Origin: a virus
Reading direction: 5' to 3' (one strand)
IMG/VR virus record: IMGVR_UViG_3300042090_002370
Coordinates: 64,001-128,000 of that record
DNA length: 64,000 bases
Below, piece after piece: positions 3,136 through 55,351 of the stretch. Position numbers and translations under genes: made by a program. Under the pieces are notes generated by a model that was not told where the DNA came from, made no database searches, and saw only the letters and a list, made by a program, of their open reading frames with translations. The first letter of the stretch is position 1, and each line of letters opens with the position of its first letter.

Positions 3136-3218
3136 AGCTAAAAAAAGGCGGCGCAGGCCGGACCGTCAACATGGCTCCGTTTTCGAAGCCATGTCAACGT
3201 GCCGAAGCCCCTTTTTTC
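3136..3218 (-). terminator. long irregular hairpin (16-bp core 3164-3199) followed by U7-AGCU
   Basis: Minus-strand RNA CGUUGACAUGGCUUCG-AAAA-CGGAGCCAUGUUGACG pairs fully with 3 G-U wobbles; ends CCUUUUUUUAGCU; follows the 8111-3270 gene run. Confidence 0.65.
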
Positions 3219-3269
3219 TCGTGTCTTGTGGTGGCCCACAGCCGTAGCCACTAGGGGTTGTGGACGAGC

Positions 3270-3602
3270 TCAGACCTGCTCGGCGCCGCTTTCTCCGAGG
3301 TGGTCGCCGAGCCCTGTTGGGGGTTGTGCGCCGCCCCTTTGAGCGGTGACAGTATTGGCAGTGAGCTCGCCACCGCTCTCGAGGTGCTTCATGCCAAGGT
3401 CGAGCTCCATCATCTCACGCAGCTCCTTCAGCTTTGCGATGGTGGGTGGGGACCATGTGCTGTTGGTGGTCCACCCGTGCGTCTCCCCTGTCTTGGAGTC
3501 GACGAAGGCGGCCTTGGCCTTGAACTCCAATGTGGGGCCTAGGAAGACTGCTGTGAACTCGCCGACGGCCACGCCGTCAAACTTCGTGACTCCCTTGATC
3601 AT
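3270..3602 (-). CDS. hypothetical protein
   Basis: Coupled ORF in the minus-strand operon, phage-like codon usage. Confidence 0.75.
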   Translation of the reverse strand: MIKGVTKFDGVAVGEFTAVFLGPTLEFKAKAAFVDSKTGETHGWTTNSTWSPPTIAKLKELREMMELDLGMKHLESGGELTANTVTAQRGGAQPPTGLGDHLGESGAEQV

Positions 3603-3898
3603 TCTGCTTTCTTTCCTGCCAGGATAGAAAAGCCGCCTTGCATGTACTCGATGGCTTTGAGTAGGGCGAGCTCAGCGGCGCGGTCGAGTGTGGGCTCGTT
3701 CTGGTCGCAAGTGAGATTCACGACGGCTGTGATTTTCACGTCGCCGAAGTTCTGTGAGGTACCGACATTGAAGCCGACGTTTCCATGAATGGCTCCAGGT
3801 GTTGCGAGCTGAGCGAACTGGTCTTCCTTGAGGACCTCGCGTTTGAGAACCTCAGCCGGCCCGTCGCCCACTTGTACTTCTACGCGCACCTCGTTCAA
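3599..3898 (-). CDS. hypothetical protein
   Basis: 4-nt overlaps with both neighbours. Confidence 0.75.
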   Translation of the reverse strand: MNEVRVEVQVGDGPAEVLKREVLKEDQFAQLATPGAIHGNVGFNVGTSQNFGDVKITAVVNLTCDQNEPTLDRAAELALLKAIEYMQGGFSILAGKKAE

Positions 3899-4338
3899 GG
3901 CGTCACCAGCTTAGGTGGCATGTGATAATTCACAATTTCTTTGCGCACGAGGCTCACGACTTCGTCCTTGATCTTACTGTTGGGCATTGTAACGGCGGCG
4001 TCGAAGCGGCCTTTGTCGATGGCGTAAGTTGTTGTATTACTGATAGCGCCGCCCACTTGCAGAAAGAGCTCACGTCCTACTGCATCGTAGAGCGCTTCTG
4101 GATCGTACTTGACCGAGACCTGGTAGGCGTCGAAGGGGCCGCACTTCACCTCTTGTTGCCTCACCGCCTTCTCCGCTTGCTCCAGTTCGGAGTTGTACCG
4201 GTCTACGAGGTGTGCGAACTGTTCGAATACAGCCGCGTTGTCGGCCTTGAACTCCTCGAGTGCTGCTTTGGCGTCGAGAAATCTGAGTACCTCGAGAAAT
4301 TCCTCGGGCGGTTTTGTGACGATGCTCTTCTTCTTCAC
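3895..4338 (-). CDS. hypothetical protein (N-terminal coiled coil)
   Basis: 4-nt overlaps with both neighbours. Confidence 0.75.
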   Translation of the reverse strand: MKKKSIVTKPPEEFLEVLRFLDAKAALEEFKADNAAVFEQFAHLVDRYNSELEQAEKAVRQQEVKCGPFDAYQVSVKYDPEALYDAVGRELFLQVGGAISNTTTYAIDKGRFDAAVTMPNSKIKDEVVSLVRKEIVNYHMPPKLVTP

Positions 4339-5198
4339 TCGGATTCTCTTTCTAGTTCGTGGTGTAACTCGTCTGCTTCGACCTTCTCGCGCTCTGTCGG
4401 GATGACACCGAAGATTGCTTCGAGGTAGCTGTTGTACGTTTGTACGGCCTTGCGAATATCGCCAACGAATCTCTGAAATGGGTTGCCTGGGCCCTTGTCA
4501 GACAGTTGCCGCGCGACGTACGCCGGGTGCAGTGTGGGGACGAAGTAGTAGTAGACCTCATTCTGCTCTACTGGGTTCTGCCACTCCTTGCCGACTTTAC
4601 GTAACCATTGCTGCTTCTTTTCCGTGAGTACAGGTCGATAGCTCGCGCCAGGGATGGCGATCTGGGCAATCTCACCATGGTCACGTGTGATGGTGATACT
4701 GCGGCCGAGGAGCGCTTCGCACGCTGGCCCTCCGAGTCCCACGATGACGATGGGGTCGACCAGGTAGATCTCCTCGAGTAGCCGTGGCCTACACGCGCTC
4801 TTCTGCGGTGGCGTTGGCGGTTCGTCTCTGAACACCGGGTAGGAGATCTTCGTGCGATAGTCCATCCGCATCTGCGGTGAGCCGTCTGCTTGCGTTGCGA
4901 TGGCGCAAGAACGGCAGCAGACAATGTTGGTGATGTAGAAGTCTGTGAGCCCCAGGGTGTCTATGACACGGCGTAGAAGCTGACCGCTACGCCCAATGAA
5001 CGGCTCACCGTGTTGTTCTTCGTCTACACCGGGGCCCTCGCCGATGAACATTACGCTGTGATTGAAGCCGCGGCCGAAGACGAATTTGCCGTCTCGACGG
5101 ATGCGCTCTACGCCGAGATCACACTTGATGCAGGAGGACCAGTCCTCTCTCAGTGTAGCAAGTGACTTCCTGGCGTCTGGTCTAATGTCTTCGGACAC
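4335..5198 (-). CDS. uracil-DNA glycosylase family 4 (Fe-S type), with insertions
   Basis: CIKCDL, VFGRG, MFIGEGPG..E...GEPFIGRSG, TNIVCCR and LHPAY motifs; start moved to GTG 5198 (SD GAAAGG). Confidence 0.88.
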   Translation of the reverse strand: MSEDIRPDARKSLATLREDWSSCIKCDLGVERIRRDGKFVFGRGFNHSVMFIGEGPGVDEEQHGEPFIGRSGQLLRRVIDTLGLTDFYITNIVCCRSCAIATQADGSPQMRMDYRTKISYPVFRDEPPTPPQKSACRPRLLEEIYLVDPIVIVGLGGPACEALLGRSITITRDHGEIAQIAIPGASYRPVLTEKKQQWLRKVGKEWQNPVEQNEVYYYFVPTLHPAYVARQLSDKGPGNPFQRFVGDIRKAVQTYNSYLEAIFGVIPTEREKVEADELHHELERESE

Positions 5199-5772
5199 GC
5201 CGCTGCCTTTCAGCCTCAGCAGCAACATCCTGCGGCGTTGCAGACGTTGTGAGGCCAGTTTGATGCGCCATCGCGTCCTTGCGGTGCTGCTCGTTGAGCT
5301 CCTCTGCGTGCTGGCAGAATGCCCGAAGCGTGGCCTGATCATTTTTGTGCTGCTGACTGAAGACGTAGATGCTGTTCCCTCTTCGGAAGTGCATCATGGT
5401 GGGATGTAGGTTGAAGTCGATACCCCTGATTAGCGGCTGACGTTGTAAGCCCACCTGTGGCATTCTCGTCTCTGGGTCGACGAGCGGTTTGCCATCGGGA
5501 CCCGTGATAGCCACACGCGTTTCTTGTACACCGAAGAAATAGGTAGGAAAGAGCGTGAGGATGTCGGCCATCATGATGGCCTGCGCTGAGACCGCTTGCT
5601 TCGGCGGGTCATTCAGGCCCTTGGGCGCGTATGGATCTCTGAAGTCGAGTTGGTATACGCGGCCCAGGTAAGTCGCTGGCCCGTCCTGGATGCGTATCCA
5701 CGTCCCGTTCTTCGGGTCGGTTATTGGCTCGCCTTCGGCGTGTCCGTGAACATTTTCGGTGTCGTTTGACAT
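5182..5772 (-). CDS. hypothetical protein
   Basis: ORF with SD GGGAG, inside the operon. Confidence 0.7.
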   Translation of the reverse strand: MSNDTENVHGHAEGEPITDPKNGTWIRIQDGPATYLGRVYQLDFRDPYAPKGLNDPPKQAVSAQAIMMADILTLFPTYFFGVQETRVAITGPDGKPLVDPETRMPQVGLQRQPLIRGIDFNLHPTMMHFRRGNSIYVFSQQHKNDQATLRAFCQHAEELNEQHRKDAMAHQTGLTTSATPQDVAAEAERQRRVRRH

Positions 5773-7487
5773 GCTCGTCTCCCAACAATGTGTCCGATGT
5801 TTTCATAGGTGAGTGGACCGTCTTGGTCGGCGGGCCAGCTCAGCAGGTGCGAACGTAGCTTCTGGCACATTCCGATGAAGGGGCCAATATCGTCCTCGAG
5901 GAAAACGACGATGGGTTCCTTCTTGCCGCCCTTCTTCCTGAGTATGCGGCCCATAAGCTGCTGCAGTGCGTTGGCGCTCGAGAGCGGCTCGTTTACGATG
6001 ATGGTGTCGAGCGCGCGTTCGTTGAGGCCCTCTTTGCCGTACTTCATGATGGCGAAGGTGACCTTTTTCTCGCGTAGCATCTTTGCTCGTTGGTCTGGCT
6101 TGACCTTGTAGATCATGAGGCCGGCGTCGCTCTGCTGAGCGAGAAGCGTCTTGAGGTACTTGCTACGGGCCTTATTCCACAAGGCCTCGCACTTCTTGTA
6201 GACGCGATGACCATATAGCAGCTGGTTGAGCTGCGCTTTCTTGATGAGCTCACCCTGCAGAGCGGCGCTGTGGCTCGTACCGGAGAGCTTTTGGATGTGC
6301 CCGATGCAGACGCCGAGCTGTTTCTGGATCTTTTGAAGAGAACTCGGGTCGAGCTCGGAAGGCGGTGTCGTCTCGCCAACGTCCTGGGCGGAGGGAAATG
6401 GAATGTCCGTGATGAGTGTCTGCCCTTTGTTGTTCCATGCAGCGAGGAGGTTCACGAGTGCGTCTACGCTCTTGGATAGAACCAGCACTTTCCGGTCGTT
6501 GGCTACTGCTTGGCGAATCTCACTTAGCACGAAGTCGATGCGCTTCGGCCATGCACCAAGAAAGCTCGCAATCTTGCCGATGTGTAGCTCACCATTCTTG
6601 TCACGTGCAGCGGCCTGTACGCGTGGGTCGCTTGTGTCGAGGCCCATTCCTGTCCAGACAAAGTAGAACTTAGGCTTCAGGTCCTGCCGTAGGTTCTTGT
6701 AGATGACTGGGCCTAGATGAAAGTTGTAGATGACGTGGTAGCCATCTTCGCGATCGGGGGTGGCTGTCAGGGCTAGCCTGTAACCGTAGAAAAGGTCGGC
6801 GGTACGCGCGAAGGTCGGAGCTGCGATGTGATGCCCCTCGTCCCATATGATGGTTCCGAACCATCGACGCGCCTCTTCTGGAAACAGATGGGCCTTTGCA
6901 GCCAGCGTGTGGTACGTCGCGATAACTACAGGCTTCTTCCAATCAAAGTGCTCGCCCTGTATCAGCCCGATGCCATCAGGTACCTCAAGGCAGTCGGCTA
7001 TCTCTTCGCGCCACTGGCGTATGAGCTCGGTTGTATCGAGGATAATAAGAAGAGGGACGCCGCGGCGCGCGGCGAAGTCCAGGGCAACAACAGTCTTCCC
7101 GCCACCGCAGCGAAGTTGGAGCACTCCCCCCCGTGAGGAGAGGAGTGCATTCATGGCCTCTTGCTGCGTGCGTTCGCCTGTGGGTACGAGTTGTCCGTTC
7201 TCTACTGTATGGTCGAGCTTTACCTTGCTCCGGATGTCCACTTTCGTGTAGTGCTGTGGCCGGCAGTCAATGACTGGGAATGCGTAGTCCTCTGGCTTCC
7301 AGAACTCTCGAGGTAGCAGTAGATGGTGCTCAGTCTCTCGGTAGAGTGTGAGGAGCGTAACCGCCTGCCTGTCGAAGAACTCAAATGTCAGCGCGTTCTT
7401 AGTGCCTTGTACATTTATCGCGCTCTTCGGACACCAGAGCATTGTATCGAGATACCCGACGTCAGGGCGGCGGACTAGCAGTTGCAT
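5721..7487 (-). CDS. superfamily 2 helicase (XPB/UvsW-like)
   Basis: LRCGGGKT, DEGHH, LTATPDR, KEGLN and QLMGRILR motifs; ~100-aa insert in the second RecA domain. Confidence 0.88.
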   Translation of the reverse strand: MQLLVRRPDVGYLDTMLWCPKSAINVQGTKNALTFEFFDRQAVTLLTLYRETEHHLLLPREFWKPEDYAFPVIDCRPQHYTKVDIRSKVKLDHTVENGQLVPTGERTQQEAMNALLSSRGGVLQLRCGGGKTVVALDFAARRGVPLLIILDTTELIRQWREEIADCLEVPDGIGLIQGEHFDWKKPVVIATYHTLAAKAHLFPEEARRWFGTIIWDEGHHIAAPTFARTADLFYGYRLALTATPDREDGYHVIYNFHLGPVIYKNLRQDLKPKFYFVWTGMGLDTSDPRVQAAARDKNGELHIGKIASFLGAWPKRIDFVLSEIRQAVANDRKVLVLSKSVDALVNLLAAWNNKGQTLITDIPFPSAQDVGETTPPSELDPSSLQKIQKQLGVCIGHIQKLSGTSHSAALQGELIKKAQLNQLLYGHRVYKKCEALWNKARSKYLKTLLAQQSDAGLMIYKVKPDQRAKMLREKKVTFAIMKYGKEGLNERALDTIIVNEPLSSANALQQLMGRILRKKGGKKEPIVVFLEDDIGPFIGMCQKLRSHLLSWPADQDGPLTYENIGHIVGRRACQTTPKMFTDTPKASQ

Positions 7488-7490
7488 CCT

Positions 7491-8111
7491 CTACTCCCTT
7501 CTTTCTTCCGGCTTCTTCTCTGGTACGGCCGCCTTCATGACATGCGTGTCGAACCAGTGCGCTGCAACGTGGCCTATGGCTTTGCCGAGGCCTCGTAAAA
7601 GTTGCCTGATGAGCGGCGACCACCAAGACTCACCGGGATGCCTCAGCTCCTCCGCAGACAGGAATGGTGGTACGGCGTAGGTTGAGGCCCATGTTGGGTA
7701 TGGGTGCTGTGGGTAAGGCACACCGTACTGAGAGCCTATAGCAGCTACCCGTTCAGCCTCCACTCTGCGGACGTACTCACCAAAGTTGGATGCCGGTGCT
7801 GGTGGGGAGTACGGGCGCGAGAATGGTTGTGGTGCAGGTTGTGGTGCAGCCTGCGCTTCGGGTGGTGGCGTAACTATAGGCGGTCTAAAGAGGTTCTGTG
7901 CGGGGATGACGCTACTAAGCGTCGCCGCGACACGGCTGCCGCAGGAGTTGAAGTAGTTACACTGATAGCGCACGTTCTTCCCGTTGTCGGGATTGACGTA
8001 GTTTGCGTCGGGCCCGCCTGCGCACGCGGGATGGTTCCTGTTCCAGAGCTTCGGGTTGCCGAAGCAGTCGGGCGGTGCTTCTCGATTGGTCACGGTGACC
8101 GGTACGTTCAT
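7491..8111 (-). CDS. hypothetical protein, Cys-containing N-terminus and Pro-rich linker
   Basis: SD GGAGGT; first gene of the minus-strand operon. Confidence 0.7.
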   Translation of the reverse strand: MNVPVTVTNREAPPDCFGNPKLWNRNHPACAGGPDANYVNPDNGKNVRYQCNYFNSCGSRVAATLSSVIPAQNLFRPPIVTPPPEAQAAPQPAPQPFSRPYSPPAPASNFGEYVRRVEAERVAAIGSQYGVPYPQHPYPTWASTYAVPPFLSAEELRHPGESWWSPLIRQLLRGLGKAIGHVAAHWFDTHVMKAAVPEKKPEERRE

Positions 8112-8147
8112 GCAGACCTCCGTATACTACTGGTGGCGATTCTAGTT

Positions 8148-8157
8148 CTTATCCCGC
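8148..8157 (-). promoter_or_regulatory. putative class I phage promoter motif GCGGGATAAG
   Basis: Ends about 37 nt upstream of ATG 8111; divergent intergenic region. Confidence 0.65.
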
Positions 8158-8181
8158 TTTTCGTGCGCCATTGGCGCGGTG

Positions 8182-8187: not shown

Positions 8188-8194
8188 AGACCGC

Positions 8195-9697: not shown

Positions 9698-9705
9698 GAG
9701 GCGGC

Positions 9706-11485: not shown

Positions 11486-11486
11486 A

Positions 11487-14400: not shown

Positions 14401-14852
14401 AAATGCAGGGGCAGGGTGGAGGTCCAGGTGGCGCCGGCGGCGAAGGCGCGATGCGGACAATGCCTGTGGAGATGCAGGCCGCTGGGGCCGGCGCGAGCGG
14501 TATGGCTGCGCCACCCGCGCAGCCTACGGACCCGTCGCCGCAGGACTTTCTCTCGTCGGTCTCGAGCCAGCTTACGGGTGAGACGAGACTGAACCAGGAG
14601 CAGAGCCAGAAGGGTATTGACCTTCCCACTTATGCGATGGGCCAAGCAAAGCTACTCGTAACGATGGCTAAGCCTCAGCAGGAACAGGCCCTGAGAAACA
14701 TTCAGGCGATGAGCCCGGAGCTCGCCGACCTGGTGAAGCAGATGCTGGCTGAACTGCAGCCGCAGGAGCAGGCTGATAGCGGTAGTGCTGGCGTAGACAC
14801 GCGACCTCTACCGCAACAGCGTCCACCGCGACGAGCGGGCGGGATGGTGTGA
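11487..14852 (+). CDS. portal protein (intein-containing precursor)
   Basis: YYFLTNPLINAVV, DYFAYGNG, FHMRR..GWG.P.L.P, GMGVP..F.G...YA portal-like pattern; ~688 aa after intein removal. Confidence 0.75.
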   Translation: MSFVGPGGAVASGPASGLRFAQSRGRIQGSNVTGVNYPSPFFDVAHTYLPVTVKAMFKWCRYYFLTNPLINAVVFKLSEYPVTDIIIDHPSNEVKRRWTDYFQDHLRWQPFRVEAGLDYFAYGNGCISLGFPFKKYLYCKNCAFRDEAGKIRAQWIFTSFQFRLTCPKCGYVGDALAKDFYYKNASGIKTIRWNPEDIEITYNDISGEYTYFYTIPATVRNDIVIGRKDIVEGVPQVFIQAMREQKGVIFSKDNFFHMRRPTLATQDRGWGTPLLLPVLKDTFYLQVMKKAQEAILLEHIVPLRVLFPQAGSGSSDPYCVSPETLVETPSGLLPAAEVREGEFLRSHTGAWRRVEYQKRRQIKPAEKVFKFQIASLPAFPFAVSEDHPILAVPRVSRKKPRAGLVDPTFIEAKALKKGDYVAYPIKRQIRRGQMLDLADYVTERAATDSWVYRRLSQSAAEAYEWLEQNADPVHAWGERKKLLEEKGWSEADYATAAAARREPKVDRVSRFLPMCPALGSLIGYYLSEGSYGGSTVSFSLHLEEKDFAELIESAVKRLGFRGVSHYERPEQHGRTVVIEDVILSELLVSMCGSGFAEKRIPDVVSEASDVIVLDMLRALFNGDGCDFKTTTDRVGLKLANPSMIMEARRLLLSFGLIGGVVKEEPTATTKFRTTSYQLNYNGHAAYKLRHLFGRPGGFDWQELPQKSGLVRGDYVLLRIDAVHEVADVPEVIGFQMAEDKSFCVAGVATHNTTINLIDWRDQVAAEIARWRYDNNYIPIMPLPLGNQTIGGDGRALMLTQEITTWSDQILNGMGVPVEFIRGGLSYAGTNVSMRMMENMFLGYISRQKALAKFVMKQVSSFLGWPEANIRFKPFKMADDLQRKAYLFQLNQANKVSDTTLLADSDLDQDEENEIMIRETDKRIEATKKQQLAMARIQGEAQQIMMKFQTKAQQDAQQAMGAPAAPGEPGGIEMQGQGGGPGGAGGEGAMRTMPVEMQAAGAGASGMAAPPAQPTDPSPQDFLSSVSSQLTGETRLNQEQSQKGIDLPTYAMGQAKLLVTMAKPQQEQALRNIQAMSPELADLVKQMLAELQPQEQADSGSAGVDTRPLPQQRPPRRAGGMV
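12441..13739 (+). mobile_element. intein with LAGLIDADG homing endonuclease in the portal gene (433 aa)
   Basis: Starts CVSPETLV, block B SEDHPIL, LIGYYLSEG and LFNGDG endonuclease motifs, ends ATHN followed by Thr. Confidence 0.92.
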
Positions 14853-14901: not shown

Positions 14902-14934
14902 GTAGCTAAAAAAAGGGGCGGCACTGCCGCCCCT
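14902..14934 (-). terminator. intrinsic terminator with U7-AGCUAC tail
   Basis: Perfect 9-bp stem AGGGGCGGC/GCCGCCCCT (14914-14934) then TTTTTTTAGCTAC on minus; abuts the stop of the 14934-15155 gene. Confidence 0.85.
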
Positions 14935-15155
14935 CATTTGCATGATTCCTCGACGATGGCTTCGGCGAGGTCGACGCGCCACTGTTCATCGAGGCGCTTT
15001 CGGTCCTCGTAGGTCTGGTAGGGAACTGAGAGGAGGAACCGGTAGCAGCGGCTGACGCTCTCCGGCGACCGGTCCTCCACTTGGTTAGGTCCTGACCATA
15101 TCCAGCGACCGCGATCGTTCCACCAGTACCCGGTATGCGGGAACCATGTGCGCAT
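14934..15155 (-). CDS. small Trp-rich hypothetical protein
   Basis: 1-nt overlap with the upstream gene; ends at the terminator. Confidence 0.6.
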   Translation of the reverse strand: MRTWFPHTGYWWNDRGRWIWSGPNQVEDRSPESVSRCYRFLLSVPYQTYEDRKRLDEQWRVDLAEAIVEESCK

Positions 15156-19063: not shown

Positions 19064-19154
19064 GGTGCTCCGTCAGCTTGCGATGAATCCACAGCATGAT
19101 GCCGTTGAGAAAACCGGCGAGTATGAACCACAAGAGACTCTTTCTCACGCTTCT

Positions 19155-19164
19155 CTTATTCCCG
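19155..19164 (-). promoter_or_regulatory. putative class I promoter motif CGGGAATAAG
   Basis: Intergenic, upstream of the MoxR operon. Confidence 0.55.
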
Positions 19165-19186
19165 TAGTGTTCAACCTATTTCCGCG

Positions 19187-19342
19187 TTACTCGCCCTCGT
19201 CTTCGCTTTCCTCGTCGTCTTCATCGAAGTCTTCATCGAAGTCTTCGGACCCGTCGTCTGTAGGTAGCAGCTCGCGTTCGATCTTTCGCTCCATGCCGCC
19301 ACCCACCGTCTCTTCTTTTACCTTCTTGTCCTTCGGTCCCAT
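19187..19342 (-). CDS. small protein with a highly acidic C-terminus (51 aa)
   Basis: ATG 19342 with SD GAAAGG; MGPKDKK...EDFDEDFDEDDEESEDEGE. Confidence 0.65.
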   Translation of the reverse strand: MGPKDKKVKEETVGGGMERKIERELLPTDDGSEDFDEDFDEDDEESEDEGE

Positions 19343-19378
19343 ATTGATGCCTTTCGTGGCGTTGCATCTCCCATCTCT

Positions 19379-19388
19379 CTTATCCCGC
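19379..19388 (-). promoter_or_regulatory. putative class I promoter motif GCGGGATAAG
   Basis: Ends about 37 nt upstream of ATG 19342; divergent from the RNAP gene. Confidence 0.65.
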
Positions 19389-19435
19389 GGCGGTGCGTTT
19401 TTTGGTGTCGTTGGCCTTATGCCGGACGGCATGAG

Positions 19436-22400
19436 ATGATTGCAGCGGCCATGGCGTATTTGGACCCCAAGAAGGCGTTCGAACACCTGAAGGAACGCGT
19501 GCTCGAGGGCATACAGGACCAATTTGCCAAGAACCCCATTGTCGGGAAGAAGCAGTCGCTGCACCTTGAGGCGCTCGAAGTACGCGACAAGTTAGGTGAG
19601 GCAGACGACATCCGCGCACAGCACAAGGCAAAGGTGGAGAACGACACCTGGGCGGTGCCTATTTATGCCACACTGGCGCTCAAGGATAACGAGACCGGAA
19701 AGGCGTTAGACCGTCGAACTATCCGCATCGCGGAGATTCCGAAGACGACTAACAGGCACTCGTACATCATCGATGGGCAGGAGTATCAGGTCAACAACCA
19801 GTGGCAATTGCGGCACGGCATTTATGTAAAGCGCCGTGTGAACGGTGAGCTTGAGGCTGCGTGCAACGCGGGTCGCGGGTTCGATGTTGTGCTGGACCCG
19901 GCAACCAAAGTCTTTCGAATGGAGCACGGTAAGAGCCGCGGTAAGCTCCCCATCTACCCATTCCTCAAGACGCTTGGTGTGAGCGACGAAGATCTCATGA
20001 AGTCGTGGGGCAAGGAGATGTTCGAAGCGAATCAGAAGGCGCCGAAGTCGGACATTGCGCTCGAGAAATTCTACAAGGCGGATAAGCCGTGGGCAGGTAC
20101 TCCAACCAAGGAGGTCGCTGCCGAGCACTTCTACGACATGATGGAGAAGACGCATCTCCGTCCAGAGTCCACGCAACTCACGTTAGGGCGGCCCTTCACG
20201 CATGTATCCGGCGAGGCGCTGAAGCTCGCAACTGAGAAGATGCTCAAGGTACAGGCGGGGCACCCAGAGGATGACCGCGATTCACTGGTCTTCAAGGATC
20301 TACGTACCGCCGGTGACTTCGCCTATGACGCCATTCTACATCAGCGCAAGAATATTGAGACACGTGCCGGGCGACAGATCGACAAAGCAAAGGACGCCTA
20401 TGACGTCATGAAGTTCGACATGTTCAACAAGCCCATCAAGGGGGCGTTGTCCTCAGCGAACGCGGCGGCTATGCCGGCATCGCAGATCAATCCACTAGAG
20501 ATGGCGTCGTCTGCGATGCAGACTACTATCATGGGCGCAGGCGGTATTCGTACCGCGCAGCAGGTACAGCATGAAGCGAAGTTTGTGAATCCCAGCCATC
20601 TCGGTTTTCTTGATCCGCTCAACACACCGGAGGGTGAGAAAACAGGTGTCACATTGCGGCTGCCTATCGGTGTACGCAAGGTCGGGCACGAGGCGAAGAT
20701 TCCTCTCTACAACCTGCTCTCCAAAAAAACCGAGCTTGTCTCTCCAGGCGAGTTCATGGAGGCAAACATCGTCCTGCCAGATCAGGTGAAGTGGGAAGAT
20801 GGCGTACCGCATCCGCTGCACCATACAGTTCGCGCGAGCTCTAAGGGCAACGAGATTCGCGACGTGAAATTCGAGGATGCGCACTACGTTATGCGCAGCC
20901 CTTCTCAGCTTTTCAACATGACTTCGAACCTCATTCCATTCCTGGCGAACACGAGCGGTAACCGCGCGTCTATGGCGAGCAGGCATATGGAACAGGCGGT
21001 CTCGCTCTTGCATCGTGAGGCCCCACTTGTCCAGGTAGGTACAGGCTCCGACAAGGAAGGCATCGACACCTTCGAGAACATCATGGGCTACCAGGCGTCC
21101 CACGCTGCTTCGGAAGAAGGCAAAGTTGTAGCAGTGAACAGGGACGGCATTATCATTGAAGACCGCCTTGGTAAGAAGCACGAAGTTCAGCTCTACAACA
21201 ACTACCCGCTCAATGACGCCAAGAGTGTGATGCACTCTACACCCGTTGTCGCCGTCGGCGATCATGTGAAGAAGGGTCAGCTCATTGCAGACACGAACTT
21301 CTCCAAGAATGGGACGCTCGCTCTCGGCACGAACTTGCGCGTCGCGTACCTGCCCTTCAAAGGGTACAACTTCGAGGACGGTGTTGTCATTAGTGACAGC
21401 GCTGCCAAGAAGCTCTCGAGTGAGCATCTGCAGAAGCTGATGATGCCACTCGACCAGGAGACCATACTCGACAAGAAGCGCTTCCACATCTCCAACCCCG
21501 GGTTGATGACGAAGGAACAGTACGAGAAGATGGACTCGAACGGCATAGTGCGGGTGGGGCAGAAGGTCCAGCCAGGCGACCCGCTCGTTGCAGCGATGCG
21601 ACCGTACAAATTGAAGGACCGTACGGGTATGGCGGCTGTGCGCAAGGCCATGGGCGGTCGGCACGATGACCGCAGCATGCGGTGGGACAGCGACTTCGAG
21701 GGCGAGGTCGTAGGCGTACATCGCAGCGACAAAGGGCTGACCGTTCATGTTCGCACGGTCGAGCCTATGCAGGTCGGCGACAAGATCAGTAATCGTTATG
21801 GTGGGAAAGGTATCGTCACCAAGATTCTGCCCGACCCTGAGATGCCGCACACGAAGGACGGTAAGCATATAGAGGTAGCGCTAAACCCCAGCGGCATACC
21901 GGGGCGCATGAACGTGGGGCAGGTCTTCGAGACCTCCGTCGCCAAGATCGCCGAGAAGACCGGCAAGCCCTACATCGTGAAGAACTTCGACACGAACATG
22001 GACGTCATCGCCAAGGTCCAGGCTGACCTGAAGGCGCACGGGCTCTCGGACACCGAGGAGCTCAAGGATCCTGCGACTGGGCAGATCCTTGGGCAGGTGA
22101 CGGTGGGGCCGCAGCACATCTTCAAACTCGTTCACCAGATCGACAAGAAGCTTGCAGTGCGCAGCGGCAGTGGGACCCTGCCTGGGGCAGCGGCGGAGCA
22201 TTACGACTTGAATCTGCAGCCCATGGGTGGCAAGAGCACTGGCGGGCAGTCGATGGGCACGCTGGGGCTCTTCGCGCTCCTGGCGCACGGCGCCAAAGCA
22301 AACATCCGGGAGATGCAGACATACAAGTCGGAGGGCCCGGACCCGCAGACCGACCCGGCGAAGAGGTGGCCGAGCGACCACCACCGGATCTGGGCAGCCA

Positions 22401-25400
22401 TTCAGACTGGGCACCCACTACCGACGCCCAAGCCGACTTTTGCTTACCGCAAGTTCGAAGACATGCTACGCGGGAGTGGCATCAACATCGAGAAGAAGGG
22501 GCATGACCTTATCCTCTCGCCAATGACGGACCAACACATACGAGCGCTGGCGAAGAACGCACTGCCGCACCCTGCGGACATGCTGAACTCGAAGATGGAC
22601 AAGAACGGAGACCCTAAGCCTAAGGCCGGTGGGCTCTGGGATGAGAAGCTTACTGGTGGGTTGGGCGGTCGTCAGTGGACGCGAATCGAGCTATCTGAAC
22701 CGCTGCCAAACCCCATCTTCGAGAAGCCTATCAAGGCACTGACCGGGCTCTCTCCAAAAGACTTTAATGCTGTTCTGCATGGAAGTAAGGGCGTCACGGC
22801 GAATGGCAACATCACGGAGGCCGGCGCCGGCGTAACTGGCGGAGCGGGCATCAAGGTTTTGCTAGACCGCGTCAACGTTGCGCGCGATCTCGCCAAGGCC
22901 GAGGCTCAGCTGAAGATCGTCAAGGGGCAGAGCGTCGACCGTGTACTGAAGAAGGTAAAGTACTTGCGGGCGCTCAAGCAGATTGGGGTGACCCCAAGCG
23001 AGGCGTACATCCTTCACAACATCCCTGTCATGCCGCCCATCATGCGACCGGTATCGAAACTGCCGGATGGGTCACCTAAGTTCGACGATATCAACCAGCT
23101 CTATTCCGACTTCGCGAAGATCAACGATAAGTTGAAGGACCCCATCTTGGTGAGGAATCTCACTGACGAGGGGAAGTCGGATCTCCGCAAGGACTTCTAC
23201 GACGGCGCCAAGATGTTCATGGGCATGGGGCTCCAGTACGGAGATGCCAAGCACAAGGGGCTACTGCACCAGATTGCCGGCAGCTCACCGAAACACGGCT
23301 ACTTCCAGGACAAGCTCATCGCCCGCAAGCAGGATCTGACGATGCGCTCGACCATCGTCCCCGAGCCAGGTCTCGATTTGGATGAGGTGGGTCTGCCGAA
23401 GCACGCCGCGCTCGAGCTTTTCAAGCCCTTTGTCGTTCGCCAGCTCAAGCAGATGGGCGCCATACAGAACGAGGTGCAGGGCGCGGCCTTTGTAGAGAAG
23501 AAGAGCCCACAGGTCTGGCGTGCGCTCGATCGTGTGATGGCGGAGCGACCTATTCTCCTAAAGCGAGACCCTGCGCTGCACAAGTACAATGTGCAAGCCT
23601 TCCGTGCACGGCCTATTGAGGGCGACGCTGTGCGCATACACCCGCTCGTGACGGGCGGATACAACGCCGATTTCGACGGCGACACGATGAGTGCCTTCGT
23701 GCCCATCACGCACGATGCGGTGAACGAGGCCGTACGGATGTTCCCCTCTCATAACCTCTTCAGCGAGGCGACTGGCCGGCTTATGTACCAGCCGACGCTC
23801 GAGAGCGCCCTCGGACTCTACAAGCTGTCGGTAGTTGGTAAGGACTCCGGGCAGAAGTTTGAGCACGCTGGCCTGGCACTTGACGCCGTGCGTTCGGGGA
23901 AGCTTGGGTATACCGATGTCGTACACATCGGTGGCAAGAAAACCACGCCGGGGCGCATTCTGCTCTCCAGCGCGGTTCCGGAGGCTATGCAGAGCGAGAT
24001 GCTGCATGATCTTCACTATCGAATCGACGGTAAGTCAGCGGGCCTGAGCGCGCTTCTGACAGGCATTGCTAAGCATTACGGCCCGCAGTATGGAGAGGTC
24101 GTCAACAAGCTGAAGGATCTCGGCAACACTACGACATTCGGAGCAGCAGCGGTTCCGCGGGCTACTAGCGCTGGGCACGCGATGTCTTTTAGCACGTTGG
24201 GTAAGAACCCAGTCGCAACACTCAATAAGAAGATGGATGTCTTCATCCCAGTTGGGGCGCACACACTCTCGCTTAAGGACTTCGAGCCGGACAAGGCGTC
24301 GAGGGACCACGTGCTGTCAGCAGCTCACAAGGTCGTAGAGAAATACGCCGACGACCCGAAAATGACTAAGGACGAGAGGGATCGCAGAACCATTGCCGTA
24401 TACGAACACGCCGCCGACGAGATGAAGGCCCTACATGAAAAGAAGGAAGAGAAAGACCCAAGCAACCTCTACACAATGTACAAGGCTGGCGTGAAGCCTG
24501 GCTGGGACCAGTACAAACAGATGGTTCTAGCACCCATGATTTACAAGGATTCCGCTGATCGGAAGATTCCGATACCTGTGACCAAGAGCTACGCAGAGGG
24601 GCTAGACGTAGGCAGCTACTGGACTCAGATGCACGGCGCCCGACGCGGTTCGGTCATGAAGGTGCAAGAGGTCAGCGGTCCAGGCTATCTATCCAAGTTG
24701 CTCATGAACAACATGATGCACATTCTTGTGAACTCTCCTGATTGCGGGACGAGCAAGGGCATCGTCCTGGACGCCAATGAGGCAGATATTCATGATCGAT
24801 ACCTGCAGCAGGAGTTCACACACGGCAAGGTTACTTTTCCTGCGGGTACGCTACTCACCCCAAGCGTTGTCGGGAAGATCCGAGCGGCGAAGAAGGACGC
24901 CAAGCTGCTTGTACGAAGCCCGCTGAAATGCGAGGACCCGAAAGGGATTTGCCAGATGTGCTCAGGGCTTGGCTCGAGTGGTCAGCACTACGACCTGGGG
25001 CACAATCTCGGCGTGCAGTCTGCACAAGCCGTTGGTGAACGCGGCATCCAGTTAGCGCTCAAGAGCTTTCATACAGGTGGCGTAGGCGAACACAAGGGCG
25101 GCTCGAAGCTGCTCAACTCCTTCGAGCGCTTCAAGCAGCTTATGTACTTGCCTGAGAAAGTTCAGGACGAGTCCTCCCTAGCGATGAAGACTGGGAAGGT
25201 TGAACAGATCGTGCCTACGTCAACAGGAGTTGACATCTTCATCGGCGGGCAGAAGCACCATGTGGGCCGCGATACGAAGGGCATGCCGCTGCATCAGCCG
25301 CTGCCAGGCGCAGAGGCGGTAGAGGGCTATGTCCACTGGAAGGTTCCGGTGGTCGGGCAGCACCTCAAGGCAGGGGACACGCTCTCCGACCCCAACCGTA

Positions 25401-25915
25401 CGCTGCTCAACCCCCATCATCTCTATGCGGCGACAGGCTCCATTGAGGAGGTACAGAATCACCTCACGAATGAGATCTACGGGCTCTACCAGAAGGAAGG
25501 CATCAAGCGTCGAGCCATTGAAACGGTCGTGCGCGCGATGAGTAACCTAACCAAGGTCAATGACCCTGGCGAGCATCCCGATGTCCTCCGCGGTGAGTTC
25601 TACCCGCTGGCACAGGTGCAGCATATGAACCAAGAGCTGCTGCGCAACAAGAAGCGGCCTATCGAACACGAGCCGGTGATGAAAGGCATCAGCGCTATGC
25701 CTCATGCCCTCATTGAGGATTGGATGGCGAAGTTGCAGCATGAACATCTGCGAACGACGCTCACTGAGGCCGCGGCGATGGGCGGCATTTCCCACCTCCA
25801 TTCTACTCACCCGATTCCAGCCATTGCTTTCGGCGCCGAATTCGGGCTTACTTCCAAGGACGCGCTAAAGCCAGGGCATGAACACTTACGTGATGTGCCG
25901 GCGCATTACTACTAG
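19436..25915 (+). CDS. rpoBC: DNA-directed RNA polymerase, fused beta-beta' subunits (alternative start 19451)
   Basis: beta motifs TPEG, LIPFL...NRA.M, GYNFEDG, GDKISNRYGGKG, LNPSGIPGRMN.GQ, GGQ.MG; beta' motifs PVMPP..RP, LLKRDPALH, NADFDGD (23663-23683), GYLSK.L, RSPLKC...CQMC, AQAVGERGIQL.LKSFHTGG; one uninterrupted frame. Confidence 0.95.
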   Translation: MIAAAMAYLDPKKAFEHLKERVLEGIQDQFAKNPIVGKKQSLHLEALEVRDKLGEADDIRAQHKAKVENDTWAVPIYATLALKDNETGKALDRRTIRIAEIPKTTNRHSYIIDGQEYQVNNQWQLRHGIYVKRRVNGELEAACNAGRGFDVVLDPATKVFRMEHGKSRGKLPIYPFLKTLGVSDEDLMKSWGKEMFEANQKAPKSDIALEKFYKADKPWAGTPTKEVAAEHFYDMMEKTHLRPESTQLTLGRPFTHVSGEALKLATEKMLKVQAGHPEDDRDSLVFKDLRTAGDFAYDAILHQRKNIETRAGRQIDKAKDAYDVMKFDMFNKPIKGALSSANAAAMPASQINPLEMASSAMQTTIMGAGGIRTAQQVQHEAKFVNPSHLGFLDPLNTPEGEKTGVTLRLPIGVRKVGHEAKIPLYNLLSKKTELVSPGEFMEANIVLPDQVKWEDGVPHPLHHTVRASSKGNEIRDVKFEDAHYVMRSPSQLFNMTSNLIPFLANTSGNRASMASRHMEQAVSLLHREAPLVQVGTGSDKEGIDTFENIMGYQASHAASEEGKVVAVNRDGIIIEDRLGKKHEVQLYNNYPLNDAKSVMHSTPVVAVGDHVKKGQLIADTNFSKNGTLALGTNLRVAYLPFKGYNFEDGVVISDSAAKKLSSEHLQKLMMPLDQETILDKKRFHISNPGLMTKEQYEKMDSNGIVRVGQKVQPGDPLVAAMRPYKLKDRTGMAAVRKAMGGRHDDRSMRWDSDFEGEVVGVHRSDKGLTVHVRTVEPMQVGDKISNRYGGKGIVTKILPDPEMPHTKDGKHIEVALNPSGIPGRMNVGQVFETSVAKIAEKTGKPYIVKNFDTNMDVIAKVQADLKAHGLSDTEELKDPATGQILGQVTVGPQHIFKLVHQIDKKLAVRSGSGTLPGAAAEHYDLNLQPMGGKSTGGQSMGTLGLFALLAHGAKANIREMQTYKSEGPDPQTDPAKRWPSDHHRIWAAIQTGHPLPTPKPTFAYRKFEDMLRGSGINIEKKGHDLILSPMTDQHIRALAKNALPHPADMLNSKMDKNGDPKPKAGGLWDEKLTGGLGGRQWTRIELSEPLPNPIFEKPIKALTGLSPKDFNAVLHGSKGVTANGNITEAGAGVTGGAGIKVLLDRVNVARDLAKAEAQLKIVKGQSVDRVLKKVKYLRALKQIGVTPSEAYILHNIPVMPPIMRPVSKLPDGSPKFDDINQLYSDFAKINDKLKDPILVRNLTDEGKSDLRKDFYDGAKMFMGMGLQYGDAKHKGLLHQIAGSSPKHGYFQDKLIARKQDLTMRSTIVPEPGLDLDEVGLPKHAALELFKPFVVRQLKQMGAIQNEVQGAAFVEKKSPQVWRALDRVMAERPILLKRDPALHKYNVQAFRARPIEGDAVRIHPLVTGGYNADFDGDTMSAFVPITHDAVNEAVRMFPSHNLFSEATGRLMYQPTLESALGLYKLSVVGKDSGQKFEHAGLALDAVRSGKLGYTDVVHIGGKKTTPGRILLSSAVPEAMQSEMLHDLHYRIDGKSAGLSALLTGIAKHYGPQYGEVVNKLKDLGNTTTFGAAAVPRATSAGHAMSFSTLGKNPVATLNKKMDVFIPVGAHTLSLKDFEPDKASRDHVLSAAHKVVEKYADDPKMTKDERDRRTIAVYEHAADEMKALHEKKEEKDPSNLYTMYKAGVKPGWDQYKQMVLAPMIYKDSADRKIPIPVTKSYAEGLDVGSYWTQMHGARRGSVMKVQEVSGPGYLSKLLMNNMMHILVNSPDCGTSKGIVLDANEADIHDRYLQQEFTHGKVTFPAGTLLTPSVVGKIRAAKKDAKLLVRSPLKCEDPKGICQMCSGLGSSGQHYDLGHNLGVQSAQAVGERGIQLALKSFHTGGVGEHKGGSKLLNSFERFKQLMYLPEKVQDESSLAMKTGKVEQIVPTSTGVDIFIGGQKHHVGRDTKGMPLHQPLPGAEAVEGYVHWKVPVVGQHLKAGDTLSDPNRTLLNPHHLYAATGSIEEVQNHLTNEIYGLYQKEGIKRRAIETVVRAMSNLTKVNDPGEHPDVLRGEFYPLAQVQHMNQELLRNKKRPIEHEPVMKGISAMPHALIEDWMAKLQHEHLRTTLTEAAAMGGISHLHSTHPIPAIAFGAEFGLTSKDALKPGHEHLRDVPAHYY

Positions 25916-27195: not shown

Positions 27196-27809
27196 CCGTA
27201 CAGTTCGTAGAAGAGCTCTCGCTCGGTGAGCTGATGCCGGGGATTGTTCTTCTCATCCCACCACTGCTTGCCGGCTTCGATCTTGTTCTCACTGGGCCGT
27301 TCGGTCTTGGGACACTGCTAGCGGATGTCTCGGTGCAGCTCGCGGCGTCGATCTCAATTCAGGTGCAGATAGGGCTGCAGATATCGAACCCCTTTGCCGC
27401 TATTGAGGCGCAGCTTGCAGCGTTAGTACAAATTCAAGCGACGCTAGAGGCCTCGCTTTCTCTGGGGCTGCCTTCAGTAGCTGTTGGCTTCTCGGCATCC
27501 TTGAGCGCTAATGCTGCCATTGCGGCGTCCCTTGGCGCTCAGATTGGTGGTATTCAAGCGCTCATTCAAGCCTCCTTGGCATTGAAGATTCCAATCGTTT
27601 CCCTACTGGCTGCGCTGGAGGTCGGTCCAGCGGACCTCTTCACGGTCGGCTTCGATACGCCGGACAACATCAATGACATCGGTGCAGGTATACTCTCAGC
27701 TCGGCTGTCGCCCGGTTGCACGCTTGCGGACACCCCCGTCTACGGCGTCATCTTGCTCACCAACGGCGCTGCGGTACAGGCCAGCATGGGCCTCATCTTC
27801 AATCCGTAG
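27192..27809 (+). CDS. hydrophobic helical hypothetical protein (possibly baseplate-associated)
   Basis: GTGA overlap with the spike gene stop; Ala/Leu/Ile-rich, a single Lys. Confidence 0.65.
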   Translation: MTVQFVEELSLGELMPGIVLLIPPLLAGFDLVLTGPFGLGTLLADVSVQLAASISIQVQIGLQISNPFAAIEAQLAALVQIQATLEASLSLGLPSVAVGFSASLSANAAIAASLGAQIGGIQALIQASLALKIPIVSLLAALEVGPADLFTVGFDTPDNINDIGAGILSARLSPGCTLADTPVYGVILLTNGAAVQASMGLIFNP

Positions 27810-27839
27810 CTAAAAAGAAGCGGGTTGTGCCCGCTTCTT
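27806..27839 (-). terminator. intrinsic terminator with U-tract-AGCUAC tail
   Basis: Perfect 10-bp stem AAGAAGCGGG/CCCGCTTCTT then TTTTTAGCTAC on minus. Confidence 0.85.
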
Positions 27840-27845
27840 CGCGCC

Positions 27846-28083: not shown

Positions 28084-28102
28084 GGTAGGTACCTCCATCA
28101 TC

Positions 28103-28112
28103 CTTATCCCGC
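28103..28112 (-). promoter_or_regulatory. putative class I promoter motif GCGGGATAAG
   Basis: About 20 nt upstream of ATG 28083. Confidence 0.65.
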
Positions 28113-41244: not shown

Positions 41245-41253
41245 GAGACGCAT

Positions 41254-41619: not shown

Positions 41620-41657
41620 ACCCGCCCATACCAAGGAACTCAAGGAGGAGCTAGATC

Positions 41658-42194: not shown

Positions 42195-42229
42195 ACCGGA
42201 ACCCAGAAGGAAGGAGAAAGGCAACCATC

Positions 42230-43372: not shown

Positions 43373-43416
43373 AAGAGGAGGCGGCACTGGCTCACGCCGT
43401 GCCGCCTTCTTCGTTT
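43373..43416 (+). terminator. intrinsic terminator after the capsid gene (no AGCT tail)
   Basis: GAGGAGGCGGCAC...GTGCCGCCTTCTT stem then CGTTTC. Confidence 0.7.
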
Positions 43417-45085: not shown

Positions 45086-45130
45086 CGGGTAGACTGGGGC
45101 ATGCGCCCCAGCCCGCCTTTTTCTAGCTAC
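45086..45130 (+). terminator. hairpin + TTTTTCTAGCTAC (variant AGCT-type terminator)
   Basis: CTGGGGC-ATGC-GCCCCAG stem extended by CGGG/CCCG. Confidence 0.55.
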
Positions 45131-50767: not shown

Positions 50768-50773
50768 GACGCG

Positions 50774-50923: not shown

Positions 50924-50998
50924 TGTGCCGCCTCGTGATTCGTGAACAAGACCGTCGTGCGAAGGCATTCAACGAACTGCCCATGAGGAGCAACTGAA

Positions 50999-53900: not shown

Positions 53901-54448
53901 GGTCGACCGGCGTGCAACAGATCATCGACGGCTTCTACATGTCGGCTGCCATCGTCGGCCTGATTGGAGCGCAGCCGCCGCAGCAGTCCTTCACCAACTT
54001 CCCGATGACCGGATTCACCAAGGTCAATGGGTCGAACGATACCTTCAGTACGCCGCTGCTGAACACCATCGCAGCCGGCGGCGTGTACATCATCGTCCAG
54101 GACGCGCCGGCCACGCCGCTCATTAGCCGCATGGCCCTCACAACTGACATGACGTCGGTCGAGACGCGTACCGACTCGGTCACGAAGATCGTCGACTTCT
54201 GCGCGAAGTTCCTGCGTACAGGCCTGAAGAACTTCATCGGGCGGTTCAACATCACCCAGGGGTTCCTCGATTCTCTTGGCCACGTCATCCAGGGGCTCCT
54301 CGGATTCCTCGCGGACTCGGGCGTGCTCATCGGCTCGAACCTCAACAACATCGTTCAGGATACGACGGAGCCTGACCAGGTGGATGTGGATGTCACCTTG
54401 GACGTTCCGCTACCGTGCAATTACATCAGGCTCACGCTTGTGATATAG
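50999..54448 (+). CDS. contractile tail sheath protein with multiple inserted domains
   Basis: N-terminal RPGVEV; C-terminal SVTKIVDF..FLR..LKNFIG.FN...V.LDVPLPCNYIRLTLVI; 1149 aa. Confidence 0.85.
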   Translation: MAAELPRPGVEVIQVFQTVTPTVITPTLVPCVVGVCKQEVDVLTTSATGASVLNSVALTELQAVLLAAAATGTPPVYSGLTGLNLDLSLNNGPLISVVFSGTPLTPAQVVAQVLLEFSAAGVTEFSAQTFSAAQWEIVSVGADQYQSIEVLSTTAPAVLAAFGFAAGRVETGSQFYDQDATSIYTSSFPNPNNNLDQLVIDPTTVRVFLYLGGSNGSSALLEALQTQSFLENGIGLPAIITGTVSLAGLTYATTATVTGSANISSGGLYGTGGSLNGETIILTVNGVGPTTLTLSGTSSSANETNLLAAINTTFPGLTATVNGSNFLVLTDNTPGSTGVIIVGAGTANTNLGLTGGTTTGVNASFTGDTLSLALNGNAPVTVTLVNPTSAASLLAQINAVIGSLATASEAVSTNFLVLTNNNIGPAYSLQVTGGTGLAVLGLITNATPVVGTAGVQAIASGSGSALTNILQFYGANFTAAPTSAQVVGTTAISGGVTAGQTLILDDGTGPQTLTFVAPVTTSAEVLSQINGLFGAAAGGRILATVNGSVHLVLTNTFLGVGSLVNILGGTALTALGLTIGITRGSPFAPLPGDTITVDGLSYATVTQVAPGGNVNQLLISTQVPVSNNVGMSWFITAMNLNVANANSGVTRPFPNLVVDGFGDAFLKQDLIRDNHGNPVYPSLAQIYVQYQALRLDVTAMAEHPALLSFNDTTDLTNQLSPITTDNPLGLGVYFALLNAPGISVTALGVDAYSGDEPFGTVDAFTRAATFLEGFEVYGIAPLTHDPTVNQVFQTHVDLMSQPENTGERIVLVNPETPTTFLNTLVASGTNGNTTSTSNQFDTGVHNLTALLLAQGLPPAGPYLVNDGIFLDIGNGENYSIVNVVGSVITIQTSGFLPGQNDDGFYATTTLPSPLISETFAVYIRGADLVLTNGQPDLTNIALTVQKVGQGFNDRRVWDIFPDSCSYTGSTGVQQIIDGFYMSAAIVGLIGAQPPQQSFTNFPMTGFTKVNGSNDTFSTPLLNTIAAGGVYIIVQDAPATPLISRMALTTDMTSVETRTDSVTKIVDFCAKFLRTGLKNFIGRFNITQGFLDSLGHVIQGLLGFLADSGVLIGSNLNNIVQDTTEPDQVDVDVTLDVPLPCNYIRLTLVI

Positions 54449-54465
54449 CCAGCGTTACCTTGAAT

Positions 54466-54475
54466 GCGGTATAAG
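54466..54475 (+). promoter_or_regulatory. putative class I promoter motif GCGGTATAAG
   Basis: About 23 nt upstream of the HNH gene ATG. Confidence 0.55.
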
Positions 54476-54497
54476 ACTCCCGAGAGGAGTCACCGCT

Positions 54498-55313
54498 ATG
54501 GAAGAGAAGCGACTCGGACGGAAACCAAGAACCTCATGGCCGCCATGCAAAGCAGAAGGATGCGCGAAGACCGCCGAGGGCGGGTCGCATGGCTTCTGCC
54601 AAACGCACTACATGGCAGCTCGTCGCGGGCGGCTGGACAAGGCGACTGGTGCAGCGCTGCGTCCAGCGAAGCGCGTGCGGAGCTACGGCCCGGGTGCCCG
54701 CTGCGTGGTTCATGGCTGCGGCCGGCGGCCGAAGGCACGCGCGCTCTGCATCATGCACTACAACCAGTTTGTGGACGGGAAGGACTTGGGAGTCGAGCTC
54801 GCCGGCGACTCCTTTGTGAAGACCGTATACCCACCTACGGCCTGCTGCATTCTGCCTGGATGCGCCAACCGACCGGTCAATCGCTGGATGTGCTCCAAGC
54901 ACACGCAGCAGAGGGAGGCGGGTATCATCAGCGAGCAGGGGGAGCCATTACGCCCATTGATGCCAAACAAGGGGCCGAAGCGGAAGGACGGTTCCATCAT
55001 CGATGGGGCAGGCTACGCACTGGTCATGCCGCCTTCTGGCTACCAGGGGAAGACCCGGCAGGGGCGCGTCCTGGAACATCGGCTCGTGATGGAGCAGAAG
55101 CTGGGGCGGCTCCTGGAGCGCTGGGAGATTGTCCATCACAAGAACGGTGTGAAGCCGGACAATCGTCCAGAGAACCTGGAGCTCATGACACAGCGAGAAC
55201 ATCCGCCTGCACACGAGTACACCCTAGAGCAGGCAGAGCTGGCACTCAACGCGCTTCAGCAGAACGACCCAGAGGCGTACGTGGCGCTGATGGCGAAGCG
55301 GTTTGCTATGTAG
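54498..55313 (+). CDS. free-standing HNH endonuclease with three N-terminal C..GC..C..H fingers
   Basis: EHRLVME..LGR.L...EIVHHKNG.KPDNRPENLELM; inserted between sheath and tube genes. Confidence 0.9.
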   Translation: MEEKRLGRKPRTSWPPCKAEGCAKTAEGGSHGFCQTHYMAARRGRLDKATGAALRPAKRVRSYGPGARCVVHGCGRRPKARALCIMHYNQFVDGKDLGVELAGDSFVKTVYPPTACCILPGCANRPVNRWMCSKHTQQREAGIISEQGEPLRPLMPNKGPKRKDGSIIDGAGYALVMPPSGYQGKTRQGRVLEHRLVMEQKLGRLLERWEIVHHKNGVKPDNRPENLELMTQREHPPAHEYTLEQAELALNALQQNDPEAYVALMAKRFAM

Positions 55314-55318
55314 CATCT

Positions 55319-55351
55319 AAGAAGGAGCAGCCCTCCTTCTTTTTTAGCTAC
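55319..55351 (+). terminator. intrinsic terminator with U-tract-AGCUAC tail
   Basis: AAGAAGGAG-CAGCC-CTCCTTCTT-TTTTAGCTAC. Confidence 0.85.

Follow-up and report, generated by a model that had tools for sequence, protein, structure and literature searches.

A conserved T-AGC tail follows hairpin terminators in a clade of uncultured phages with a single-chain RNA polymerase

Results

Terminators with a conserved tail in the window

The stretch of DNA analyzed here (the window) consists of 64,000 nucleotides, bases 64001-128000 of the 163,859-bp IMG/VR virus record IMGVR_UViG_3300042090_002370 (G000; GC 0.59, estimated completeness 88%), which comes from an uncultured phage that encodes its own RNA polymerase; coordinates are those of the window unless marked as genome. 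At five sites in the window, a hairpin is followed by a T-run and then by a short tail that begins with T-AGC (Table 1). The only polymerase gene found in the record, that for a fused beta-beta' RNA polymerase, also lies within the window, and its product is the candidate reader of these signals. An earlier note on this DNA had listed the same five sites as terminators with a conserved AGCT(AC) immediately after the U-tract. All five read as described and the conserved tail is real, but the strict word is TAGC, with positions 5-7 variable; at 3146(-), the final AC is missing and the tail is AGCTCC.

The five sites have the anatomy of intrinsic terminators, with a stable G/C-rich hairpin and, straight after the stem, a U-rich tract (T5-T7, or T5 plus CT). 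The minimum free energies of the hairpins range from -18 to -41 kcal/mol, with folding z-scores between -3.8 and -4.7 except at 45118, where the hairpin is weaker (z = -1.6). As the earlier note had it, the hairpin sequences are unrelated, differing at every site. At 3146(-), the strong hairpin of 16 bp (3164-3199) is located 18 nt upstream, and only a weak 4-bp CGGC/GCCG hairpin abuts the T-run. The AGC starts 9, 7, 8, 9, and 7 nt past the G/C-rich part of the stem at 3146, 14914, 27816, 55340, and 45118, respectively; these distances were read site by site. An automatic version (last G:C pair to AGC) is too noisy, given that A:U extensions of the stems close with G:C pairs. No Rfam covariance model matched at the gathering score anywhere in the window.

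The genomic settings of the five terminators differ. The one at 27816(-) closes a unit that consists of a single 44-aa open reading frame (ORF; 27846-27980), whereas at 14914(-), the opposing gene ends at 14852, so that no same-strand gene follows; the site at 45118(+) has no class I promoter, that is, no GG(G/A/T)ATAAG motif, close upstream. The hairpins after the capsid gene and after the papain-like (C1) peptidase gene lack the tail, in agreement with the earlier note. Read on the minus strand, the capsid-gene hairpin is followed by CTCTTAGCC, and because of this it may keep antisense transcription out of the capsid gene.

Table 1 Terminators, promoter-like motifs, and selected genes in the window.
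Feature	Position	Strand	Details
Terminator with variant tail	3134..3199	-	T7 3146-3140, then AGCTCC 3139-3134
Terminator at convergent junction	14902..14935	-	10-bp GC hairpin, T7 14914-14908, AGCTAC 14907-14902
Terminator of single-gene unit	27806..27840	-	hairpin GAAGAAGCGGG/CCCGCTTCTTT, T5, AGCTAC 27811-27806
Terminator with spaced tail, structural block	45087..45130	+	hairpin, T5 45118-45122, CT, AGCTAC 45125-45130
Terminator between co-directional genes	55319..55351	+	hairpin 55319-55341, T6, AGCTAC 55346-55351
Promoter-like motif GGGATAAG	8148..8155	-	opens unit closed at 3146
Two promoter-like motifs	19155..19386	-	GGAATAAG 19155-19162 and GGGATAAG 19379-19386; open unit closed at 14914
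Promoter-like motif GGGATAAG	28103..28110	-	opens unit closed at 27816
Promoter-like motif GGTATAAG	54468..54475	+	opens unit closed at 55340
Hairpin after capsid gene	43375..43411	+	no T-AGC tail on + strand
Terminator after papain-like (C1) peptidase gene	59825..59856	-	strong hairpin + TTTTATTTG; no tail
Fused beta-beta' RNA polymerase, single 2159-aa chain	19436..25915	+	Pfam Rpb2_6 2e-58, Rpb1_2 1e-24, Rpb1_5 4e-18
Uracil-DNA glycosylase family protein	4335-5342	-	ORF
SNF2/ResIII helicase	5721-7487	-	ORF
Papain-family (C1) peptidase	59886-60863	-	ORF

The tail marks terminators across the phage genome

The word TTTTAGCT is present in four copies in the window, compared with 0.66 expected, and only 1 of 100 shuffles attains four. 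In the whole record, TAGCTAC is found at 17 distinct places, 13 of them directly after a hairpin and 12 of these 13 with a T-run. Using our own codon-usage gene calls for the whole genome, we identified 13 intergenic terminators that consist of a hairpin and a T-run, of which 12 carry T-AGC 0-4 pyrimidines past the T-run; against all other T-runs, the association of the tail with hairpins is significant (Fisher p = 1e-6). Elsewhere, TAGC is under-represented genome-wide, with observed/expected ratios of 0.27-0.71. An unbiased 7-mer count of the intergenic DNA yielded two motif families, the tail and GG(G/A)ATAAG, and among the 16 most-hit tetramers, TAGC shows the strongest association with hairpins (8.0% compared with 2.9% over all tetramers, with a fast stem finder). 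Further variants of the tail in this genome include TTTTTTCTAGCC, TTTTCTTTAGCC, and TCCTAGCTGC.

The orientation of the tail follows that of the upstream gene. In 13 of 13 cases, a gene on the same strand ends 0-120 nt before the hairpin, the position and strand that are characteristic of intrinsic terminators. The tail is also found at convergent junctions, beyond which there is nothing more to be transcribed, namely, at 14914(-) in the window and at genome 44802(-). Where terminators face each other or act in both directions, each direction has a tail, as in the relatives G001 (40216-40289) and G012 (TGAGGGCTA-hairpin-TAGCCCTCA); in the source phage, a bidirectional terminator is flanked by AGCCGC at one end and AGTTAC at the opposite end. 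At the G001 junction (G001:C1:40216-40289, locus L024/L014), the two convergent terminators share the palindromic CTAGTAGCTA, which gives each direction its own TAGC tail. Because the strand of the tail follows the upstream gene, because it is present at convergent ends and once per direction, and because its spacing from promoters varies (see below), the tail belongs to the terminator, not to a promoter.

Two other roles for the tail were considered and rejected. In several folds, the tail appeared to form a closing helix with an upstream GTAGC, but over 128 sites, the complementarity between the tail and the 5' flank of the hairpin was no better than chance (4.55 compared with 4.56 in permuted pairs); the upstream GTAGC mostly reflects a TAG stop codon. 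The TAG within the tail does not serve as a back-up stop codon either, not being consistently in frame with the upstream gene. TAG accounts for 41% of the stop codons in this genome (70 of 169 called genes), an unusual share at 59% GC, while CTAG and TAGC are under-represented overall.

Another short word recurs at three places downstream of a tail terminator and ahead of the following start codon, as GGTACGCTGG at window 55358-55367 and at G000:C1:30197-30206, and as GGTACGCTG at ~155366-155374. This word may represent a second promoter class or a leader element.

Conservation among relatives and near-absence from unrelated phages

Searching IMG/VR with the polymerase protein identified at least 238 relatives, mostly on contigs of 120-200 kb. 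Megablast comparison with cultured phages gave no match; in terms of polymerase identity, the cultured phages that come closest are Vibrio phages D69, D181, and D148, at 30%, and Salmonella phage Arash, at 33%. In Arash, the polymerase homolog is split in two (gp206 and gp216). We subjected the whole records of nine relatives to identical scans. The tail takes the forms AGCTAC and AGCCTC in G001 (62% polymerase identity), AGCC(T/C)C in G004 (67%), AGCTAC and AGCTCC in G014 (48%), and AGCTAT in G020 (37%, GC 0.49). In G012 (52%), AGCCCTC(A) or AGCTNC comes after pyrimidine arms such as CTTCTTCT, and there are few pure T-runs. Thus, the invariant core across the clade is a pyrimidine tract followed by T-AGC, with Y, any base, and C commonly next; a mixed C/T tract can stand in for the T-run in the relatives, often in G012. 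Positions 5-7 differ between lineages, the AGCTAC form being specific to the lineage of the source phage, and in some lineages the core is followed by TCA, so that in G001, G004, and G012 the box extends to ~10 bp, TAGCYNCTCA.

Compared with its reversed control, TTTTTAGCY is found 67 versus 18 times in 20 clade genomes and 8 versus 2 times in Vibrio phage D69, where 4 of the 8 copies, with tails AGCC or AGCT, follow strong hairpins. The unrelated large phages RSL1 (0/0), phiCbK (0/2), PaBG (1/1), and RHph_TM30 (1/1), of which the first three are GC-rich, together have 2 versus 4. Within one pipeline, the tail was detected on 39 of the 161 strict terminators of the clade and on 1 of 104 in RSL1, phiCbK, and PaBG (Fisher p = 1e-8). 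The inference of the earlier note, a sequence-specific pause/termination signal for the phage RNA polymerase, is partly supported: the tail is a non-random, oriented element tied to terminators, conserved in relatives with this polymerase and nearly absent from unrelated phages. Across the wider clade, the hosts include Vibrio (D69, with the tail in a minority of cases), Salmonella (Arash), and the GC-rich hosts of the wetland phages in which the tail is common. Given that the hosts vary while the polymerase is common to the clade, this distribution points to phage rather than host machinery.

Promoters and transcription units

The earlier note had further proposed that GG(G/A/T)ATAAG motifs open the units that the tail terminators close. 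All four pairs that it named hold (Table 1), and genome-wide, an intergenic GG(N)ATAAG opens a co-linear gene run closed by a tail terminator at ~15 of 20 sites; for example, the promoter at genome 45611 opens the unit closed at genome 44802. The exceptions include 45118, deep inside the structural block, where there is no class I promoter nearby, so that the tail is not exclusive to class I units. The pairing is, therefore, a real tendency but not a rule. The distance from the tail to the following GG(N)ATAAG varies between 4 and 28 nt (at the upper end, the GGAATAAG promoter at 3105-3098, which serves a DnaB-like gene, lies 28 nt downstream of the 3146(-) tail), and some tails are found without any promoter; the tail thus has neither the fixed spacing to a -10-like box nor the consistent downstream gene expected of a promoter element.

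The GG(G/A/T)ATAAG motif itself is located 15-40 nt ahead of start codons and has a second conserved box, GCAA, ~17-19 nt upstream (window 8100-8160, 19150-19390, 28060-28110, and 54430-54475, and genome-wide), an arrangement that resembles a sigma-type promoter in two parts. The window shows no excess of sigma-70-type promoters (2 compared with 4.4 expected). No match to Pfam sigma region 2 or region 4 was detected in the 88%-complete record, and tblastn with gp10 of Arash gave only a weak hint at genome 26767-27097 (E = 0.14).

Metatranscriptomic coverage

The RNA data consist of one wetland metatranscriptome that contains the phage, in the form of assembled contigs, which cannot show 3' ends. 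Contigs of the capsid region (41000-43000) reach a depth of ~15, compared with 0-4 over most of the next 17 kb, which is consistent with late-gene RNA rather than DNA carry-over.

Discussion

The reading that we favor, with moderate confidence, is that the tail is a clade-specific terminator-distal box on otherwise ordinary intrinsic terminators, its probable target being the phage's own polymerase at the point of release. From the sequence patterns, we infer an effect of the box on termination, with the phage polymerase as its putative reader. The clade comprises uncultured phages of ~120-200 kb with a single-chain beta-beta' RNA polymerase, and each signal of this type is built from three modules: a G/C-rich hairpin that varies in sequence, a tract rich in U or in pyrimidines, and, as the box, T-AGC-Y-N-C (TAGCTAC in the source phage). 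At intrinsic terminators, bacterial polymerase releases the RNA 7-9 nt past the stem. Because the AGC starts at that same distance, the box would lie just ahead of the active site, as downstream DNA or the next bases to be copied, and outside the released RNA. There, its most likely role is to make hairpin-driven release efficient by holding or destabilizing the phage polymerase where the U-tract ends, either by itself or by way of a phage factor; such a role would also account for how relatives with a poor U-tract manage. A more specific version, which we put forward only tentatively, is that the single-chain polymerase, alone or with a packaged factor, recognizes T-AGC-Y-N-C at the downstream edge of the bubble and that this recognition is needed for efficient release. 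Polymerase subunits and a sigma factor rank among the most abundant proteins in the virions of Arash (PMC10585845), and the enzyme is, therefore, probably injected with the DNA.

Several observations weigh against this interpretation. Two strong terminators in the window, if functional at all, do without the tail, and two metatranscriptome contigs run across the terminators at 43373 and 45118 (assembled contigs, in which no ends can be read). If the stem is extended to include A:U closing pairs, its distance to the AGC varies between 0 and 8 nt. Among the distant relatives in culture, the tail is weak, being detected on 1 of 25 strict terminators in D69, while Arash mostly shows only the T-run followed by AG. 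Furthermore, there is little precedent for a multisubunit polymerase core that reads downstream DNA in a sequence-specific manner, and only composition effects are known for the bacterial polymerase (see also PMC11696848).

The tail could, alternatively, act at the RNA level: transcription would continue past the hairpin, and a ribonuclease or RNA-binding protein of phage or host origin would cleave or bind the word UAGCYNC in the RNA, with the hairpin left as a protective 3' end. A fixed word beside a variable hairpin fits a sequence-specific nuclease, the tail is also found behind hairpins that lack a proper U-tract (genome 143296(-) and many G012 sites), and the contigs that bridge two terminators indicate that read-through RNA, or DNA carry-over, exists, even if such contigs cannot show ends. 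We nevertheless regard processing or binding as unlikely because no nuclease candidate was found, most copies in the source phage have a good T-run, and the word, starting at the expected release point, would be absent from the terminated RNA. We give slightly less credence to a roadblock, in which a phage DNA-binding protein or a helicase-type termination factor would bind the box as a 7-10-bp duplex and stop or remove the polymerase. The box does reach ~10 bp in three relatives, the source phage encodes an SNF2/ResIII helicase, and helicases accompany the polymerase in Arash virions (PMC10585845). No binding protein was found, though, and the box abuts the U-tract, leaving no room for the polymerase footprint (~13 bp in front of the active site) for which a downstream roadblock would have to allow. 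A roadblock or factor of this type is at work at Pol I terminators, which combine a T-rich element with a Reb1 or TTF-I site, and in the NPH-I-dependent termination of poxviruses, both of which the tail may resemble.

The two remaining explanations detach the word from termination, and we find both hard to sustain. If the word marked recombination joints at which small gene units are swapped, it should be comparable to the promoter-stem-loop cassettes of T4-type phages (PeSL/PmSL), which Arbiol reportedly described in 2010 and which resemble the present case in that repeated regulatory junctions with a stem-loop and a promoter flank small accessory genes in large phage genomes. Several copies indeed border individual small genes that have a promoter of their own (27816/28110, 55340/54468, and genome 141148-143296). 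However, PeSL stem-loops are alike in sequence and tied to early promoters, whereas here the tail is promoter-independent and the hairpins are unrelated, and therefore the cassettes are not copies of each other. Seven bases are, moreover, too few to support homologous exchange, long operons and convergent genes also end with the word, and its strand is always that of the hairpin and the T-run, all of which makes a recombination joint improbable. Least credible of all is the possibility that the word belongs to the promoter or initiator of the next gene, with the T-run as an upstream AT element and TAGCTAC at the point of initiation or close to it. Where the next gene runs in the same direction, a start codon does follow 2-38 nt past the tail, but at genome 141148, the ATG comes only 2 nt past the word, at convergent junctions there is no gene to drive, and the GG(N)ATAAG class, at no fixed spacing from the tail, has its own upstream GCAA box. 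We rejected a promoter role on the grounds of the convergent ends and the lack of fixed promoter spacing.

A terminator-distal box would differ from the known stop signals in several respects. According to the prevailing view, a hairpin and a U-tract suffice for intrinsic termination by multisubunit polymerases. Like bacterial intrinsic terminators, those described here have a G/C-rich hairpin and then a U-rich tract after stop codons, are oriented with the gene, and include an A-tract partner in bidirectional copies. Unlike in bacteria, where no fixed word is found past the U-tract, T-AGC-Y-N-C is nearly invariant within the phage clade, and in relatives of the source phage the U-tract may decay to a C/T mix while the word persists. 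In ordinary terminators of E. coli, only AT-richness downstream of the U-tract correlates with strength (PMC11696848). The T3 and T7 early terminators resemble the present proposal in that bases just downstream of the release site matter for a multisubunit polymerase, but there the effect is quantitative and concerns two terminators, whereas here a word is conserved across the genome and in relatives. It was Telesnitsky and Chamberlin who, in 1989, reportedly found that bases past the release site alter the efficiency of these early terminators with the E. coli polymerase.

The class II signal of T7 RNA polymerase, ATCTGTT, is used by a single-subunit enzyme, needs no hairpin, and precedes the U-run. 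In both cases, a phage polymerase would read a short specific word within a stop signal, but the enzyme in question here is a fused beta-beta' polymerase of the multisubunit type, and its presumed word is TAGCYNC, positioned after a hairpin; the class II features are, accordingly, lacking. The early stop signal of poxviruses, U5NU, with NPH-I and the capping enzyme, acts in the RNA 20-50 nt before the end and without a hairpin. The likeness lies in a virion-packaged multisubunit viral polymerase and a U-rich, sequence-specific stop signal, but U5NU does not match the copies with a T-run and AGC. We found no description of the tail in the searchable literature, and the reviews of phage multisubunit polymerases found there contain nothing on termination signals.

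If the favored reading is correct, a bacterial-type polymerase can evolve sequence-specific termination, with a word that is conserved down to ~37% polymerase identity. Under the more specific, tentative version, the genes of these phages would be punctuated by a stop signal unlike ordinary host-type terminators, and no other multisubunit polymerase would previously have been known to follow a strict terminator-distal consensus. Together with the GG(N)ATAAG promoters, tail terminators would provide a compact orthogonal promoter/terminator pair for synthetic biology, and the tail would allow transcription units to be annotated better in the related metagenomic phages of IMG/VR, of which there are at least 238. 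The cultured distant relatives, Vibrio phage D69 and Salmonella phage Arash, make the question testable at the bench.

Other genes in the window

The unit that ends at 14914 includes, at 15155-17862 (-), a DUF2201 metallopeptidase/VWA-like protein that adjoins an AAA_5 (MoxR-like) ATPase. Two long ORFs, 11487-14852 (+) and 36036-38861 (+), contain LAGLIDADG homing-endonuclease domains, the latter together with Hint/intein splicing domains; both are probably intein-containing genes.

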